Source of the DNA: Candidatus Limnocylindrales bacterium
GTDB taxonomy: Bacteria; Desulfobacterota; Binatia; UBA1149; CAITLU01
DNA length: 64,000 nucleotides
Assembly (NCBI GenBank): GCA_035571835.1
Contig: DATNBU010000017.1
Coordinates: forward strand, 106,687-170,686
Direction: 5' to 3'
In this document: positions 1 through 5,773 of the stretch, in pieces
How the letters are laid out: each line of letters begins with the position of its first letter
How positions within the stretch are numbered: position 1 is the stretch's first letter
Notes under the pieces: model-generated
What the model was told of the DNA's origin: nothing
The model's database searches: none
The model's input: the letters and a program-made list of their open reading frames with translations, nothing else
Position numbers and translations under genes: made by a program

Positions 1-1896
1 GCGGATCCGCTCGGCGGCTTTGCCGCGATCACCGAACGGCTCCGGTCGGAAGAGCCCCCGCTCGCCACGCGCGACGGCGTCTTTACGACGCCGGACGGAA
101 AGTACGCGGTGCTGTTTCTCGCCACGCGCAGCTCCGCGTTCGACTCGTTCGCGCAAAGGCCGCTGCTCGATGCGATCCGCCGGACGTTCGACGAGCAGCG
201 AGCGCTCCTCGGGCCCGACCTCGTGCTCGAACAGAGCGGCGCCAACCGCTTTTCGATCGACGCGGAGAACAAGATCCGCGGCGACGCATCGCTGATCTCG
301 ACGCTCTCCGGCATCGGCGTCGCCGCGCTGTCGCTGCTGTTCTTCCGTTCGCTGATCTCGCTCGCGATCGTGACGATACCGGGCGTCGCGGGCCTGCTCT
401 TCGCGCTCGCGGCCGGCCTGTTCTTCTTCGGCCGTCTCGACGGCATGACGATCGCGTTCGGCGCTTCGCTGATCGGCGTGACCATCGATTATCCGACGCA
501 CGTGCTGATCCTGTGGAGCCTGTCGAAGTCCGGCGAGACGCCGTGGCAGGTCACGCGCCGGCTTGCCGGATCCCTTTCGATGGCCGCGCTGACGACGATG
601 GCAAGTTTTGCCGGGCTTGCCTGGACGTCGTTCCGCGGCTTCCGCGAGCTCGGCTGGTTCGCGGTGCTCGGCGTCGCCGGTGCGCTCGTGGCATCGCTGC
701 TGCTGCTGCCGGATCTCTTGCCGCGCCGGCGCAGGATCCAGCCGGTTTCCGAAGGGCTCGCGAACGTCCTCGGTCCGTGGCTGGTCCGCCTTCGCGAGCG
801 GCGCATGGTGCTCGCGCTGGCGCCAATCGCGATCGTGATCGTCGCGGCATTCGCGCTGCCGAAGCTCGCATGGAACGACGATCTCTCGCGCATCTCGTCG
901 CCCGATCCGGTGCTCAAGGCAGAGGACGACCGCGTGCGCGAGCGCGTGTCGAACTTCGACCCGGGCCGCTTCGTGATTGCTGCCGGCAACGACGCTGCGG
1001 CGATGCTCGAGCGCAACGAACAGGTCCATGCGCGGCTCGAGAAGCTGGTTCGCGAAGGAAAGCTCGGGGGCATGCGCTCGCTGCACGCGCTGCTGTGGCC
1101 CGAGTCGCTGCAGCGGCGCAATCTCGAGGTGCTGCGCGCAAGTCCCGATCTTCCGCGCCGGCTAGACGCCGCGTTCGTGCACGAAGGGTTCCGGCCGCAG
1201 TCGTTCGCGCCGTTCGCCGAGATGCTCGCGAATCCGCCGCCGCCGCTCGACCTCGCCACGCTTCGCGCGTCGGCGCTCGGACCGCTGGTGAGCTCGCTCG
1301 TGCTCGACCTCGGCGACCGCGTCGCGGCCATCACGTATCTGCGCGGCGTGCGCGACGCCGACGCGGTGCGTGCCGCGCTCGGCGATCTTCCCGACGTGAC
1401 GTTCTTCGAGCAGCGCACGTTCCTCAACGACATCTTCGCGCACTTCCGAAACCAGACGCTGCGCCTCGTCGTCGTCGGCACCGTGCTCGTCTACGTGCTG
1501 CTGCTCGTGCGCTACCGCCACTGGCGGAGCGCCACCGCGGCGTTCCTTCCCGCGCTGCTCGTGCCGGTCGTGCTGCTGTCGGGCTTCGCGCTGGCCGGCG
1601 TCGAGACCAACCTGCTGCACGCGGTCAGCCTGCTGATGGTGATGGGCATGGGAGTCGACTACGGCATCTTCATCGTCGACACCGCGCGCGACGACGAGGC
1701 CGAGGTCGGCGCGACGCTGGTGTCGTGCCTTTTGTGCTGCCTGACGACGATCCTGTCGTTCGGCACGCTCGCGATCTCGAGCCAGCCGCCGCTGCGCGCG
1801 ATCGGCATCACGACCGGTGCCGGCGTTGCGCTGTCGCTGCTGTTCGCTCCGATCTCGCTGCTTCTGCTGAGCGTCAAATCGCGGTCGCAGCGGTAG
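1..1896 (+). CDS. MMPL/RND-superfamily predicted exporter (5' end outside window)
   Basis: Frame 1 is open from nt 1 into ORF 109..1896. Two hydrophobic halves have typical MMPL/SSD transmembrane patterning (e.g. GMTIAFGASLIGVTIDYPTHVLILW and MVMGMGVDYGIFIVD). Exporters of this type are standard in aryl-polyene/xanthomonadin clusters. Confidence 0.8.
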   Translation, partial: ADPLGGFAAITERLRSEEPPLATRDGVFTTPDGKYAVLFLATRSSAFDSFAQRPLLDAIRRTFDEQRALLGPDLVLEQSGANRFSIDAENKIRGDASLISTLSGIGVAALSLLFFRSLISLAIVTIPGVAGLLFALAAGLFFFGRLDGMTIAFGASLIGVTIDYPTHVLILWSLSKSGETPWQVTRRLAGSLSMAALTTMASFAGLAWTSFRGFRELGWFAVLGVAGALVASLLLLPDLLPRRRRIQPVSEGLANVLGPWLVRLRERRMVLALAPIAIVIVAAFALPKLAWNDDLSRISSPDPVLKAEDDRVRERVSNFDPGRFVIAAGNDAAAMLERNEQVHARLEKLVREGKLGGMRSLHALLWPESLQRRNLEVLRASPDLPRRLDAAFVHEGFRPQSFAPFAEMLANPPPPLDLATLRASALGPLVSSLVLDLGDRVAAITYLRGVRDADAVRAALGDLPDVTFFEQRTFLNDIFAHFRNQTLRLVVVGTVLVYVLLLVRYRHWRSATAAFLPALLVPVVLLSGFALAGVETNLLHAVSLLMVMGMGVDYGIFIVDTARDDEAEVGATLVSCLLCCLTTILSFGTLAISSQPPLRAIGITTGAGVALSLLFAPISLLLLSVKSRSQR

Positions 1897-2013
1897 CCAC
1901 TCGGTCTAAATCGACACTCAACTTCCCTTGAGGTAAAGTGTTGTGAAAACATGGCTGCTCTCCTGCGTTGCTGAAGACTCCGTACTGGACGAGTCGGCCG
2001 AGGGGCCGACGAG

Positions 2014-2823
2014 ATGGGCCAGTGGGTCAAGAAAGAATACAGCAACAAACGGATCAACGATGCCGCGGCACAACTTGCGCCTTGGTGGCTTCGTCCAGAC
2101 CGCTCCGCTGCAGACGCAATGGCAGAGGCATACGACGTCGTCGATAACTGGCGGGCTTCACACTCCTTTCCCCTCAACCACTTCCAAGATTCACTGAGGA
2201 AACGGTCACGAAAGGTCGATTCGAATGTCATCGTAGCGCGGCGGCTTAAACGCATGCCGTCCGTGTTAGCAAAGCTCGCTAGGTCTCCCTACCCGGTGAC
2301 AACTATGCAGGATCTAGGCGGCTGTCGCGCGATATTAGGCTCTATGCGTGAGGTTAACGCTGTCCTCGACACATTTATTGGTGAGCCGTCCCTATTTCCG
2401 CTGGAAGGGACTCCGCGTCATTACAATTACATACAGAAACCAAAAGCAGACGGTTATCGAGGTATTCACATCGTTGGCCGCTACAAAGCCAAGTCGCAGC
2501 AAACAAGCTTTTGGAGTGGGTATAGGATTGAGATTCAACTCAGGACCGTCCTGCAGCACGCGTGTTCGACAGCCGTTGAAACAGTCGCGACATTTACTGG
2601 GTTTCCACTCAAATTCGGCAAAGGACCGGATGACTGGAAGCGGTTTTTTGTGCTCGCCTCTTCTGCCTTCGCGATTCTCGAGCGCAGCCCCCTCTGCCCG
2701 GGAGCCCCTGAAGACTCCGAAGAAGATACAGCCTCGACCGCTCCCCTCCCCTTCGTCGTCGGGTCTTTCCCCGCTCGGAGCGCCGCCGAAGCGCCGGACG
2801 TTTACGGTGCCTGGCTCCCTTAA
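2014..2823 (+). CDS. RelA/SpoT-domain nucleotidyltransferase, stand-alone small-alarmone-synthetase-like (toxSAS-like), 269 aa
   Basis: Synthetase-fold motifs are present in canonical order: basic ATP-binding stretch RRLKRMPSVLAKLAR, DLGGCRAIL (the DxxGxR-type G-loop), NYIQKPKADGYRGIHIV, and the diagnostic EIQLRT. No HD hydrolase domain. A GAGGGG RBS-like purine run lies 8-13 nt upstream. The gene sits in the low-GC island. Confidence 0.75.
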   Translation: MGQWVKKEYSNKRINDAAAQLAPWWLRPDRSAADAMAEAYDVVDNWRASHSFPLNHFQDSLRKRSRKVDSNVIVARRLKRMPSVLAKLARSPYPVTTMQDLGGCRAILGSMREVNAVLDTFIGEPSLFPLEGTPRHYNYIQKPKADGYRGIHIVGRYKAKSQQTSFWSGYRIEIQLRTVLQHACSTAVETVATFTGFPLKFGKGPDDWKRFFVLASSAFAILERSPLCPGAPEDSEEDTASTAPLPFVVGSFPARSAAEAPDVYGAWLP

Positions 2824-3099
2824 AAGCTGAGTCATCATGACTCCCACAGTACATGTTCGTGAAGGATCAGATCGTCGCAAACCTTCTGACCCGGAGACTA
2901 CGGCGGCTTGATGACCGGCGGGCGGCCTGCCCCGGAGTCGGATCGTCGTATGGCAATGCGGCCCCCAGGTGCCTTGCCGACGCCCACAACTGGCCCGGCC
3001 AAGGGGCTTCGGGTTTCTCTTAAGTTGGCCACAGCAGTATGGATCTCAGTAGGTGGTTTTTATCGCACAGGGGACGTATTCCAGCTATGAATCCTGTAC

Positions 3100-3140
3100 A
3101 TTACTTGCCAGCAGTGGCCTTGGCATATATAGAGGCGCGT
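3100..3140 (+). promoter_or_regulatory. Putative sigma70-like promoter (TTGCCA-N15-TATATA) with overlapping TGCCA-N10-TGGCA inverted repeat
   Basis: Read directly in the AT-richer spacer between the RelA/SpoT-like gene and the small ORF. Spacer length is suboptimal (15 nt). Confidence 0.2.
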
Positions 3141-3176
3141 TGACTCTCGCCGACTCGGGCGCATAGGGAAACCGCA

Positions 3177-3362
3177 ATGACCTCCAAGACTGTAATCTAC
3201 TCAAGTCCGCGTCTAGCTGAAGCGGTTGGGAAGAAGAGCGCCACTGCGCAGCAGGGATCATTCGAGGTGCAGATTCGTCGGGTCAGGGATGTGCCAAGAT
3301 ACCTGCGGCGACTCCGGGAAATGAAGGACAGCGCGAAGCATAGCGTTCTGCTCTTCCGTTAG
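3177..3362 (+). CDS. Hypothetical small basic protein (61 aa), candidate cognate partner/antitoxin of the adjacent RelA/SpoT-like gene
   Basis: ORF with a GGGAAA RBS-like sequence 6 nt upstream of ATG, preceded by the candidate promoter. Arg/Lys-rich C-terminus (RRVRDVPRYLRRLREMK). No recognisable family. Confidence 0.3.
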   Translation: MTSKTVIYSSPRLAEAVGKKSATAQQGSFEVQIRRVRDVPRYLRRLREMKDSAKHSVLLFR

Positions 3363-3390
3363 CCCCTCACCCTCCGCGTCTCCTCCTCTC

Positions 3391-4986
3391 ATGCCGCAGC
3401 CATCGTCCGCTCCGCGGCTATCCCCTTCCCTCACTTGCCGCGTCCATTCGATGGCGCGTCCTTTTTCAAATTTCGACTACGTCGAATCCCACTATCAGCG
3501 GGAACCCGCCATTCGTCGCATATTCTCGCAAGCACGAATGCATCATGCCCAATCCTTCGCGGTCGAGGACATCGAAGCAGACGGACTGGTCGCTGACGAA
3601 AACGCGGAAATCCATTCGTTCCTGGCGTCCTACCAAATGACAGGCCTGCAGCGTCTCTCGTTCTGGACCGCTCCCAATGACGCTGTAGAGAATGGAAATA
3701 TCAACAGCGAAAATCTTGTCGGATACGCCGTCGTCAAAAAAGACAGAGTTCCGTCACGACAGAGTCTTGCAAATGGATCATGGCATGTTTTCGAGTCGGT
3801 AATTCGGAAATACCCGGATCGACACAATTACATACCAGCCAATCCCAAATTCCCCGTAGTTTTCGGAACCAGACAGTTCCAGCTGCAAGGGGCTCTCTAT
3901 TGCCAACAAAACGGTTTGAACAAATCTTGTGCTCAGGTCGCGATTCGAAGTTTACTAGCCACGATCTCACCTGAACTCGATATTTCGTATTCGCAGTTGA
4001 ACGCGATCGCTCGCAACTATCCGCCGCTGACGCCAAGCGAAGGGCTCAGCGTTCAACAGATTAGTGGAATATTTGATAAGCTAGGAATGAAATATACGGC
4101 AATCGAATACGGTGAAGACGAATCGAGTAGCGGTGGTAGTGACAGTCCAACTGATCGCGCGGCCTTCCCTTACCAGAAGTTTCTTTACGCGGGAGTCGAG
4201 GCTGGCGCCGGAGCGTTGCTTGGATTTCGGCGCGATGCGGCAGAGCCCGCCGAACGTTCTCATATCATCCCATTCTTCGGCCATACATTTAACAGCGATA
4301 CTTGGGTTGTGAATGCAGATTCTGGCTACTTCTCAATCGGCGAGGCAATACGATACATCCCCAGCGATGCTTGGGTGAACAGTTTCATCGGTCATGACGA
4401 TAACTACGGATCTAATTTCTGCGTTCCGCGTTTGTACGTAAAACCACAAAACGTAGGGTACGTGCTCGCACTGCATAAGGCAGGATTTGGAACTAGTGGT
4501 ATTGAGGCCGAAGCAATAGGGAGTGAGTACGTTTATGCGCTACTGGGCGTAGAGACGATTAAGGATTCAACAAATCCTTGGCTCAGAAGGCTAGTCGCTT
4601 TTGCGGACCAACAGCGCGTCGTAATACGTGCAGTACCACTTACTCGAGATGAATATGTGTCACATCTGAATGCTGCTCAGGACTGGGAATGGAATCGAGA
4701 GCACTCCTCTACGCGTGAAGTAATGAGAGCCCATCTACCGGAGCGACTTTGGATGATAGAGGTTTCTCTACCGGAACTCTTCCCAGCAAATCATCGAAAA
4801 CTGGGAAGCATACTATTGAATGGGGACGGAGAGTTCGGGGAAGATCTTGACCTCTCCGAGTTCGTCTTTGCCCAATTTCCTTCGATAATCGTCTTCGCTC
4901 GTGGCTTGAGCGCAGGTGGCACTCCGGAATTCACTTTCTCCGAGAGCAACCTCAAATCACATATCCCGGTTTATCCGGGCGAGTAA
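3391..4986 (+). CDS. Hypothetical protein, 531 aa, no recognisable family (possible papain/C39-like Cys-His core is speculative)
   Basis: Long uninterrupted ORF in the low-GC island with coding-like codon periodicity. Alternative in-frame starts at 3451 (MARPF) and further downstream. No convincing RBS at 3391, so the start is uncertain. Confidence 0.6.
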   Translation: MPQPSSAPRLSPSLTCRVHSMARPFSNFDYVESHYQREPAIRRIFSQARMHHAQSFAVEDIEADGLVADENAEIHSFLASYQMTGLQRLSFWTAPNDAVENGNINSENLVGYAVVKKDRVPSRQSLANGSWHVFESVIRKYPDRHNYIPANPKFPVVFGTRQFQLQGALYCQQNGLNKSCAQVAIRSLLATISPELDISYSQLNAIARNYPPLTPSEGLSVQQISGIFDKLGMKYTAIEYGEDESSSGGSDSPTDRAAFPYQKFLYAGVEAGAGALLGFRRDAAEPAERSHIIPFFGHTFNSDTWVVNADSGYFSIGEAIRYIPSDAWVNSFIGHDDNYGSNFCVPRLYVKPQNVGYVLALHKAGFGTSGIEAEAIGSEYVYALLGVETIKDSTNPWLRRLVAFADQQRVVIRAVPLTRDEYVSHLNAAQDWEWNREHSSTREVMRAHLPERLWMIEVSLPELFPANHRKLGSILLNGDGEFGEDLDLSEFVFAQFPSIIVFARGLSAGGTPEFTFSESNLKSHIPVYPGE

Positions 4987-5017
4987 TCGTTCCGACAGCT
5001 AGGCATCACAACACCGC

Positions 5018-5773
5018 TCATTCCGAATCGCCCTGACGGTCCGCGGGCGCCGCAGGCCGCGGCTGCGCGAACAGCTCGGCGAGCTCCTGCTCGCTGAATC
5101 GGTGCTCGACGTCGGTTTTCCCGAACCGCGTCACGGTGCGGTCGCCGTCCGGCTCGACGGCTTCCATGCGGTCGACGTGCGCGCCGTGGCCGGTCATGTC
5201 GAAGTACGAGATCATGCGCTCGAGCGGCATCGAGCGCGGCGACAGGTGCAGGTGCCACTCGCTTCCGCCGGCCTGCGCATCGCCCGCATCGTGCGGCGTT
5301 TCGCTGTATTCGGCGCGGTAGAGCTCCTTCAGACGCGCCTCGTCGCCGTTGAACAGCACGACGAAGCTGTCGACGATCTGGCGCGCGATCGGGCTCGACG
5401 ACAGATCCAGCGCCTTGCTGCCGGTCGCTTCCTCCATGCGCACCTTGTCGCCGTCGACGACGAGTCGCGACCGCGACGGGCTCACGACGACGCGCACGAA
5501 ACGATGCGGCGGAATGAAGTAAATCGTCCCCGAAGATTCGAGCGGCGCCGACAGCAGCGCAAGCTCCTTCGTTTCGGTGAACTCGGCGACGACGCCGGGC
5601 GACGCGCGCATCGCCGACAGCATCGACGACAGATCGTGGACGGCCGCGGGCTCGGTCGCCGCGGCCGGCTCGGCCAGAGCGAGCGCAGCTGGTTCAATGC
5701 CGGCAAGGAATGCCGAGCCGCTGAAACCGAGTGCCGCGATCACGCCGCGAGCCGCCGCCGATAGCGCCGCCAT
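5018..5773 (-). CDS. LolA-like outer-membrane lipoprotein carrier family protein (aryl-polyene cluster type)
   Basis: ORF 5018..5938 trimmed to internal Met (MAALSAAARGVIAALGFSG signal-like N-terminus). Size (~250 aa) and position next to thioesterase/exporter match LolA-like proteins of APE clusters. Confidence 0.65.
   Translation of the reverse strand: MAALSAAARGVIAALGFSGSAFLAGIEPAALALAEPAAATEPAAVHDLSSMLSAMRASPGVVAEFTETKELALLSAPLESSGTIYFIPPHRFVRVVVSPSRSRLVVDGDKVRMEEATGSKALDLSSSPIARQIVDSFVVLFNGDEARLKELYRAEYSETPHDAGDAQAGGSEWHLHLSPRSMPLERMISYFDMTGHGAHVDRMEAVEPDGDRTVTRFGKTDVEHRFSEQELAELFAQPRPAAPADRQGDSE

Follow-up and report, generated by a model that had tools for sequence, protein, structure and literature searches.

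A 3'-truncated CapRel-type toxSAS open reading frame on a foreign islet: the probable relic of a fused anti-phage toxin-antitoxin gene

What is a 269-residue protein with the synthetase fold of RelA/SpoT homologs (RSH) doing on a patch of foreign DNA, with no hydrolase domain beside it? The question is raised by an open reading frame (ORF) at positions 2014-2823 of a 64,000-nt stretch of contig DATNBU010000017.1 (assembly GCA_035571835.1); the whole of this stretch is called the window here. An earlier note, made from the sequence alone, had described the ORF as a stand-alone small alarmone synthetase (SAS) and had favoured a toxic enzyme (toxSAS) over a housekeeping one. We propose that it is probably the 3'-truncated relic of a fused CapRel-type toxSAS toxin-antitoxin (TA) anti-phage gene, lying on a small horizontally acquired islet. 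The gene is most likely a degraded further member of the known CapRel family and not a new kind of system.

Family and domain of the open reading frame

Coordinates are those of the window, and residues are numbered in amino acids (aa) of the ORF unless the phage SJ46 protein is named.

2014..2823, plus strand: CapRel-like toxSAS ORF, 3'-truncated, 269 aa, ATG start, TAA stop
2014..2727, plus strand: toxSYNTH domain, a nucleotide pyrophosphokinase (aa 1-238), whose homology covers residues ~1-245 of CapRel-SJ46
2236..2253, plus strand: ARRLKR, aa 75-80, basic ATP site; A75 and R77 correspond to A77 and R79 of SJ46
2305..2328, plus strand: MQDLGGCR, aa 98-105, with D100 and with R105 corresponding to R116 of SJ46; invariant in the family and present in the window copy
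2449..2469, plus strand: G-loop DGYRGIH, aa 146-152; Y148 corresponds to Y155 of SJ46
2530..2547, plus strand: EIQLRT, aa 173-178, motif with the catalytic Glu of RSH synthetases; E173, Q175 and R177 vary little or not at all across the family

The ATG at 2014 is likely to be the true start, with the N-terminus of the ORF lining up with the starts of more than 100 homologs. Membership of the RSH synthetase superfamily is clear from a match to Pfam RelA_SpoT (PF04607) that exceeds the gathering score (44.7 bits, cut-off 27; E 1.8e-11; aa 77-186), together with all of the catalytic and ATP-binding motifs, taken here as a basic RxKR, DxGGxR, the G-loop GY(R/S)GIH and EIQ(L/I)RT. The ordered signatures that the earlier note had picked out in a 269-aa ORF (ARRLKR, MQDLGGCR, DGYRGIH and EIQLRT) are thus real, and its statement on architecture also holds: Pfam and NCBIfam profile searches of the ORF for an HD hydrolase domain and for the C-terminal regulatory region of long RSH proteins found neither. 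The AlphaFold2 (AF2) model of the 269-aa ORF has a predicted local distance difference test score (pLDDT) of 83, with aa 1-240 modelled confidently, and the N-terminal hidden Markov model (HMM) of the family matches the toxSYNTH domain at E 3.7e-97.

Sequence and fold comparisons both point to CapRel. With phmmer against the PDB the best match was 7ZTB/9ERV (CapRel-SJ46, E 1.1e-27), 7ZTB being named as the Salmonella phage SJ46 tRNA pyrophosphokinase CapRel from the PDB titles and the literature; RelQ matched at 8.8e-5 and the RelQ/RelP entries at 1e-4 to 1e-2. A Foldseek search with the AF2 model also placed 7ZTB first (E 1.2e-16, 33% identity, TM-score 0.69), and the RelQ/RelP matches, at about 1e-9 (1.3e-9) and about 20% identity, lay about seven orders of magnitude behind it. 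Over aa 3-220 the toxSYNTH domain of the ORF is 32-36% identical to that of CapRel-SJ46, and the residues required in SJ46 (Y155, R79 and R116) have their counterparts in Y148, R77 and R105. In SJ46, A77 and R79 take part in adenine/ATP-donor coordination and in the surface on which the C-terminal pseudo-zinc-finger domain (pZFD) docks, and the substitution Y155A abolishes defence (PMC9712102). The ARRLKR residues are kept in 110-112 of the 112 family members as well as in the window copy. In 50,697 phage records the only tblastn matches were the SJ46 RelA/SpoT gene and one coliphage homolog. The NCBIfam equivalog model for RelQ (NF053588, GTP diphosphokinase YjbM) scored the ORF at 25.3 bits against a cut-off of 320.

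The best profile matches were to the PADLOC candidate defence family PDC-S33 (E 1.8e-73, profile positions 3-227 of 349) and to phrog_4773 (E 3.7e-56, profile positions 28-227 of 353). Since the profile lengths of 349 and 353 match those of full-length homologs, both models appear to describe the same fused CapRel-like family; a literature search for PDC-S33 found no publications. One full-length homolog (P0002) can be aligned with CapRel-SJ46 from end to end (35-347 against 34-366, E 1e-37), including a C-terminal 'AYPNYY'. These comparisons support the assignment of the ORF to the CapRel subfamily of toxSAS and not to the housekeeping SAS, a closeness measured by PDB sequence, fold and phage-record comparison, with FaRel, FaRel2, PhRel and PhRel2 outside that comparison. 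The preference of the earlier note for a toxSAS is thereby upheld and narrowed to CapRel, while its picture of a stand-alone orphan gives way, the family being one of fused proteins of about 350-390 aa.

Loss of the 3' end and of the antitoxin

As a functional class, toxSAS enzymes are marked by a growth-inhibiting pyrophosphorylation of tRNA CCA ends or by synthesis of (pp)pApp. In CapRel the N-terminal toxSYNTH domain pyrophosphorylates tRNAs at the 3' CCA end and so blocks translation (Zhang et al. 2022, PMC9712102; Kurata et al. 2024, PMC11782079). The C-terminal pZFD serves as antitoxin and as phage sensor at once: the YXXY motif inserts between R79 and R116 and blocks the ATP site, and the binding of a phage capsid protein to the pZFD lifts this autoinhibition (PMC9712102). 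By itself, CapRel-SJ46(1-272) is toxic, an effect that 273-373 relieves in trans, and the full-length protein becomes toxic through single substitutions in the YXXY or in the docking interface (PMC9712102). In the ORF, the region in which this C-terminal half would be expected is occupied by the following.

2728..2823, plus strand: unrelated tail, aa 239-269 (31 aa), in place of the anchor helices, the pZFD and the YXXY switch

The similarity of the ORF to its family is lost after about aa 238, and no homolog aligns past about aa 238-245. Among the best 120 of 2066 homologs of the ORF, 112 of the 119 others are 340-400 aa long; these homologs, which are at most 53% identical to the ORF apart from one identical fragment, cover only about 88% of it. 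In the alignment to the real SJ46 protein the break falls near SJ46 residue 245, ahead of the pZFD (270-339) and of Y352 and Y355 in the YXXY (352-355). Within the tail the GC content jumps to 0.69 (0.688), and the AF2 pLDDT of below 50 over aa 241-269 predicts disorder.

The missing C-terminal residues, about 110 in number, were sought in all frames of 1501-5500 by tblastn, ten full-length homologs serving as queries, and no trace of them was found. A 128-position C-terminal family HMM, run with the filters off, gave negative scores in the six frames of 2601-3400 and nothing credible across the 64-kb window, and the ORF has no YXXY after the toxSYNTH domain, the family consensus AYPNYYADT being absent. 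Of the two marks of a fused CapRel, a pZFD antitoxin/sensor within the polypeptide and a YXXY motif, the ORF therefore has neither. Two candidate explanations that would have kept a C-terminal domain were rejected. In a MAFFT alignment the tail segment 'EAPDVYGAW' was set under the family 'AYPNYYA', as would be expected of an in-frame internal deletion that had spared the YXXY, but the residues are scattered across long gaps, the HMM scores are negative, Y352 is unmatched and Y355 stands against V. A frameshifted pseudogene with its C-terminal domain in another frame was rejected because both the tblastn and the six-frame HMM searches were empty.

Judged against its own family, then, the ORF is short through loss of its 3' end and not because the family is a small stand-alone enzyme. 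The term 'stand-alone' in the earlier note fits this copy, which is single-domain, and does not fit the family; it would describe a secondary loss that has left the remnant of a fused TA gene. In three family homologs (P0118, P0049 and P0063) the reading frame is lost or ends soon after the toxSYNTH domain, with sporadic frameshifts in the first two. Loss of the C-terminal half may be a recurrent route of decay in the CapRel-like family, and some of these cases are perhaps artefacts of assembly or of contig ends.

The lost antitoxin might have been replaced by a separate gene or RNA next to the ORF, where the following spacer lies.

2824..3176, no strand: spacer of about 350 nt without a recognisable gene, made of GC-rich and AT-rich patches; no antitoxin candidate

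A split (bicistronic) toxSAS type II TA system is recognised by an adjacent antitoxin gene of a known type, and the ORF has none. Pfam searches of the neighbouring genes and the C-terminal HMM over the 64-kb window revealed no Panacea/DUF4065, no pZFD/ATcapRel-like and no small alarmone hydrolase (SAH) antitoxin beside it. The ORFs of the spacer are of at most 60 aa, with no Pfam match, no conservation and no YXXY, and no YXXY-bearing ORF of plausible size was found in the island. An Rfam search of the island and spacer, which also covered the idea of a type III antitoxin, gave no credible RNA, and the spacer has no similarity to 80 loci of the neighbouring 531-aa module (see below).

In 100-nt steps after the breakpoint the GC content is 0.69 (2701-2800), 0.50 (2801-2900), 0.74 (2901-3000) and 0.48 (3001-3100), and no recognisable gene, RNA or repeat was found in 2701-3100. 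In a syntenic relative (L083) the two flanking genes are just 3 nt apart, so the GC-rich patches are not leftover host spacer. The rearrangement that cut the ORF short may have left them as scars.

The foreign island and the state of the remaining half

1873..5052, no strand: foreign low-GC island of about 3.18 kb, between convergent MMPL-like and LolA-like genes
1..1896, plus strand: MMPL/RND-like exporter gene, the 3' part of a 787-aa gene whose 5' end is outside the window; host flank
5018..5773, minus strand: LolA-like lipoprotein-carrier gene; host flank
1911..1939, plus strand: sigma-70-like promoter match TCGACA-17-TAAAGT, the sole one in the island, 75 nt upstream of the ATG

The GC content is 0.539 over 1873-5052 against 0.67-0.69 in the flanks, and at third codon positions (GC3) it is 0.57 in the RSH gene against 0.85-0.89 in the flanking host genes. 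In L083, whose LolA-like protein is 74% identical, the gene order is the same, and the MMPL and LolA-like genes are convergent and 3 nt apart. DNA synteny with L083 extends over window positions 1-1872 and 5053-5661 at 78-79% identity, and the 3.18 kb between them corresponds to 28 nt in the relative. Since L083 holds the empty site, the island is a true insertion, and the foreign low-GC island of the earlier note is borne out. The empty site came from the homolog search and contig look-ups; a search for it in JGI metagenomes with the LolA-like protein gave nothing. A search for features that might mark the island revealed neither an integrase nor a tRNA, and no repeats flank it. The last 8-15 residues of both island-flanking proteins differ from those of their L083 counterparts.

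The history that we propose runs as follows. The gene would have arrived by horizontal transfer on, or into, the 3.18-kb islet, which also holds an unrelated two-gene papain-fold module. The activity of the ancestor is inferred by homology to CapRel-SJ46: as in intact members, its toxSYNTH domain would have moved pyrophosphate from ATP to the 3' CCA ends of tRNA and so brought translation to a halt, and the YXXY of its C-terminal pZFD would have plugged the ATP site in cis, to be released on the binding of a phage protein such as the major capsid protein. Near nt 2728 a rearrangement would then have taken away the anchor helices, the pZFD sensor/antitoxin and the YXXY switch and left the 31-aa disordered tail. 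What remains, the toxSYNTH domain of aa 1-238, would no longer be able to sense phage, and since the sensor domain is missing, the ORF is not expected to work as a sensor-effector. Because a fragment of this kind is toxic in the characterised system, we infer that the present copy is non-functional, being silent, poorly expressed or attenuated by its substitutions.

The substitutions are numerous. The window copy deviates at 20 of the 98 columns that are at least 90% conserved, where the family median is 2 and the maximum 10, and it is 50% identical to family members that are 64% identical to one another. In a relative-rate test with SJ46 as the outgroup it had 14.8 lineage-specific changes against 9.3, and it was the higher of the two in 93% of comparisons. 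Accelerated or relaxed evolution of the window copy is suggested by these sequence comparisons.

A number of observations weigh against decay. The relative-rate excess is individually significant in just 7% of comparisons, and the odd substitutions may be no more than the mark of a divergent lineage; among them, D138N was considered as an inactivating change and dropped, the same change being present in the full-length homolog P0002. The ORF retains all of the catalytic and ATP-site residues tested (A75, R77, D100, R105, Y148, H152, E173, Q175 and R177). All 269 codons are open, the start fits the family N-terminus and AF2 predicts a well-folded toxSYNTH domain. Both a Shine-Dalgarno-like element (GAGGGG, 8 nt before the ATG) and the promoter-like site precede the gene, although the single sigma-70-like site observed in the island compares with 1.6 expected by chance and is not evidence of function. 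Since the toxic SJ46 fragment 1-272 is longer than the window protein by about 25 residues, the toxicity experiment gives no direct reading of the activity of the window protein. Finally, the three available assemblies are of the same strain and carry no population or comparative evidence on selection, and inactivity is not provable from sequence.

An intact catalytic core could also mean that the toxin works. It is unlikely, but to be taken seriously, that the ORF encodes an active stand-alone CapRel-type toxin that pyrophosphorylates the tRNA CCA end, having arisen by fission of a fused TA gene and being held by an unrecognised control. That control could be a non-homologous antitoxin or small RNA in 2824-3176, a neutraliser or a hydrolase that removes the pyrophosphate (SAH or SpoT-like) from a gene at another place in the genome, or strict repression of transcription. 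The open frame with all of its catalytic residues, the confidently folded toxSYNTH domain and the ribosome-binding-site-like and promoter-like elements upstream would suit such a toxin, as would the knowledge that CapRel/PhRel TA pairs have been fused and split repeatedly and that hydrolase-type antitoxins are known for toxSAS (PMC9712102; PMC11782079). However, an antitoxin of the pZFD or Panacea type is present in neither the island nor the 64-kb window, and the spacer offers only its short ORFs, without family, conservation or YXXY, and no Rfam RNA. Furthermore, no closer relative has the short architecture: among the best 120 of 2066 homologs none but the identical fragment exceeds 53% identity, and those that are short have the look of frameshifts or contig ends.

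We consider it improbable that an antitoxin-less, catalytically intact CapRel toxSYNTH domain is expressed and tolerated by way of a non-homologous neutraliser, or has been attenuated and repurposed as a low-activity tRNA/nucleotide pyrophosphokinase. The neutraliser may in that case be a peptide or RNA of the spacer, the neighbouring 61-aa and 531-aa module or a chromosomal hydrolase. If the fragment were expressed and active, tolerance of a normally lethal, uninhibited CapRel toxin would imply an unrecognised route of neutralisation and, with it, a new mode of controlling or domesticating toxSAS toxins.

Very little credence is given to the truncation being a metagenome misassembly, or a collapse over a hypervariable C-terminal region, of what is really a full-length fused CapRel gene. 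Metagenome assemblies are indeed the source of the window, no part of CapRel varies more than the pZFD region (PMC9712102), and the GC content changes abruptly at the breakpoint. Against this, the identical ORF is found in two other assemblies from different pipelines, namely ENA ERZ27256655 (a MEGAHIT-style k141 contig of 317 kb) and Logan SRR6185369 (a contig of 11 kb), and all three copies are 100% identical in DNA, with the same junction and the same neighbours. All three represent the same strain and hence no independent evolutionary sample, which makes dN/dS between the copies uninformative. The identical neighbouring gene is also held by an NCBI metagenome-assembled genome (MAG; P0121), and a simple collapse would create neither the 450 nt of unrelated sequence nor, after it, a two-gene module that is intact and independently conserved.

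That module consists of two genes on the same strand as the ORF.

3177..3362, plus strand: 61-aa ORF, small and conserved as partner of the 531-aa gene; outside the RSH system
3391..4986, plus strand: 531-aa ORF, an uncharacterised papain-fold Cys/His protein with an alternative start at 3451; separate mobile module

Homologs of the 61-aa protein, which has no Pfam assignment, lie directly upstream of a gene of the 531-aa family in at least 32 other loci, and a viral fold search with the 531-aa model gave no significant match. The pair is a widespread, uncharacterised and self-contained two-gene unit, and is arguably the more novel object of the island. Even less probable than misassembly is that the toxSYNTH fragment and the 61-aa and 531-aa proteins form a composite three-gene system, such as a proteolysis- or partner-controlled toxin. 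The three genes are co-oriented in one small foreign island, and the papain-fold protein and its partner are uncharacterised, which would leave room for such a role. The 531-aa gene was nevertheless rejected as a conserved partner of the RSH gene, since none of the 80 other loci of its family has an RSH gene within 10 kb, whereas the 61-aa partner is conserved. Furthermore, the more than 100 toxSAS homologs are self-contained fused proteins, and the two parts of the island differ in GC content (0.54 against 0.51), with 350 nt of patchy, unrelated sequence lying between them.

A housekeeping SAS of the RelQ, RelP or RelV kind, making (p)ppGpp for the host stringent response, would account for the RSH synthetase fold, the SAS-like length and the lack of a hydrolase domain, but is effectively refuted by the NF053588 score (25 bits against 320), by RelQ/RelP structures that match about 20 orders worse than CapRel by sequence and about 7 by fold, by homologs that are CapRel-type proteins of 350-390 aa, and by the location on foreign DNA that is missing in syntenic L083, with a GC3 of 0.57 against 0.85-0.89 in the host.

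The host locus (window 1 to about 13000; 1-20810 of L001) is an aryl-polyene/flexirubin-like lipid biosynthesis cluster. Its genes encode an aromatic ammonia-lyase, a 4HBT thioesterase, the LolA-like protein, the MMPL exporter, a DUF3261 protein and two acyl carrier proteins, together with an AMP-ligase/ApeI-like protein, acyl- and glycosyltransferases and a B12-radical SAM enzyme. The taxonomic names given to the source MAGs (P0121, P0262, P0263 and P0290) do not agree: the identical 531-aa protein is filed under 'Candidatus Limnocylindrales bacterium', and for the closest LolA-like relatives the name is 'Candidatus Binatia bacterium' or Limnocylindrales.

Comparison with known systems

If the ORF is the relic of a fused CapRel gene, as we propose, the first gain is one of annotation: what a pipeline-style call would name a 'GTP pyrophosphokinase' is the toxin half of a CapRel-type anti-phage TA protein without its sensor/antitoxin. 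The case would illustrate the in-place decay of defence genes, and it indicates that annotation at the level of domains can mask the loss of a regulatory half.

The housekeeping enzymes RelQ (YjbM/SAS1), RelP (YwaC/SAS2) and RelV share with the ORF the core RSH synthetase fold, the G-loop and the EIQxRT motif. They are only about 17-21% identical to it, with E-values of about 1e-4 by sequence, and the ORF differs from them in its foreign composition and in being missing from the syntenic relative. PDC-S33 and phrog_4773 provide the best profile matches to the ORF, yet the last third of each profile is unmatched.

With CapRel-SJ46 (7ZTB, 9ERV; PMC9712102, PMC11578894) the ORF shares the toxSYNTH domain, the same order of secondary structure elements, the EIQLRT motif and the equivalents of A77, R79, R116 and Y155, and like CapRel-SJ46 it is carried on mobile or foreign DNA. 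Unlike CapRel-SJ46, it is without the anchor helices, the pZFD (270-339) and the YXXY (352-355), and would have neither autoinhibition nor a phage sensor. Its closer relatives, at about 50% identity, have the complete CapRel architecture including AYPNYY, and from the family as a whole the window gene differs in being unusually divergent at conserved positions.

Unfused CapRels do exist, mostly in Actinobacteria, with an antitoxin that is either a homolog of CapRel's C-terminus or of the Panacea/DUF4065 type (PMC9712102; PMC11782079). The toxins of the split pairs, such as CapRel-ATcapRel of Mycobacterium, PhRel-ATphRel (gp29/gp30) of phage Phrann and FaRel2-ATfaRel2 of Coprobacillus, are likewise toxSYNTH-only proteins of about 200-270 aa with tRNA as the predicted target (PMC11782079; PMC9712102). 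Such pairs always have an adjacent antitoxin, be it a pZFD with YXXY or Panacea/DUF4065, whereas none is detectable near the window ORF. In length and domain content the window gene resembles the split toxins, but its nearest relatives are fused proteins and not split ones.

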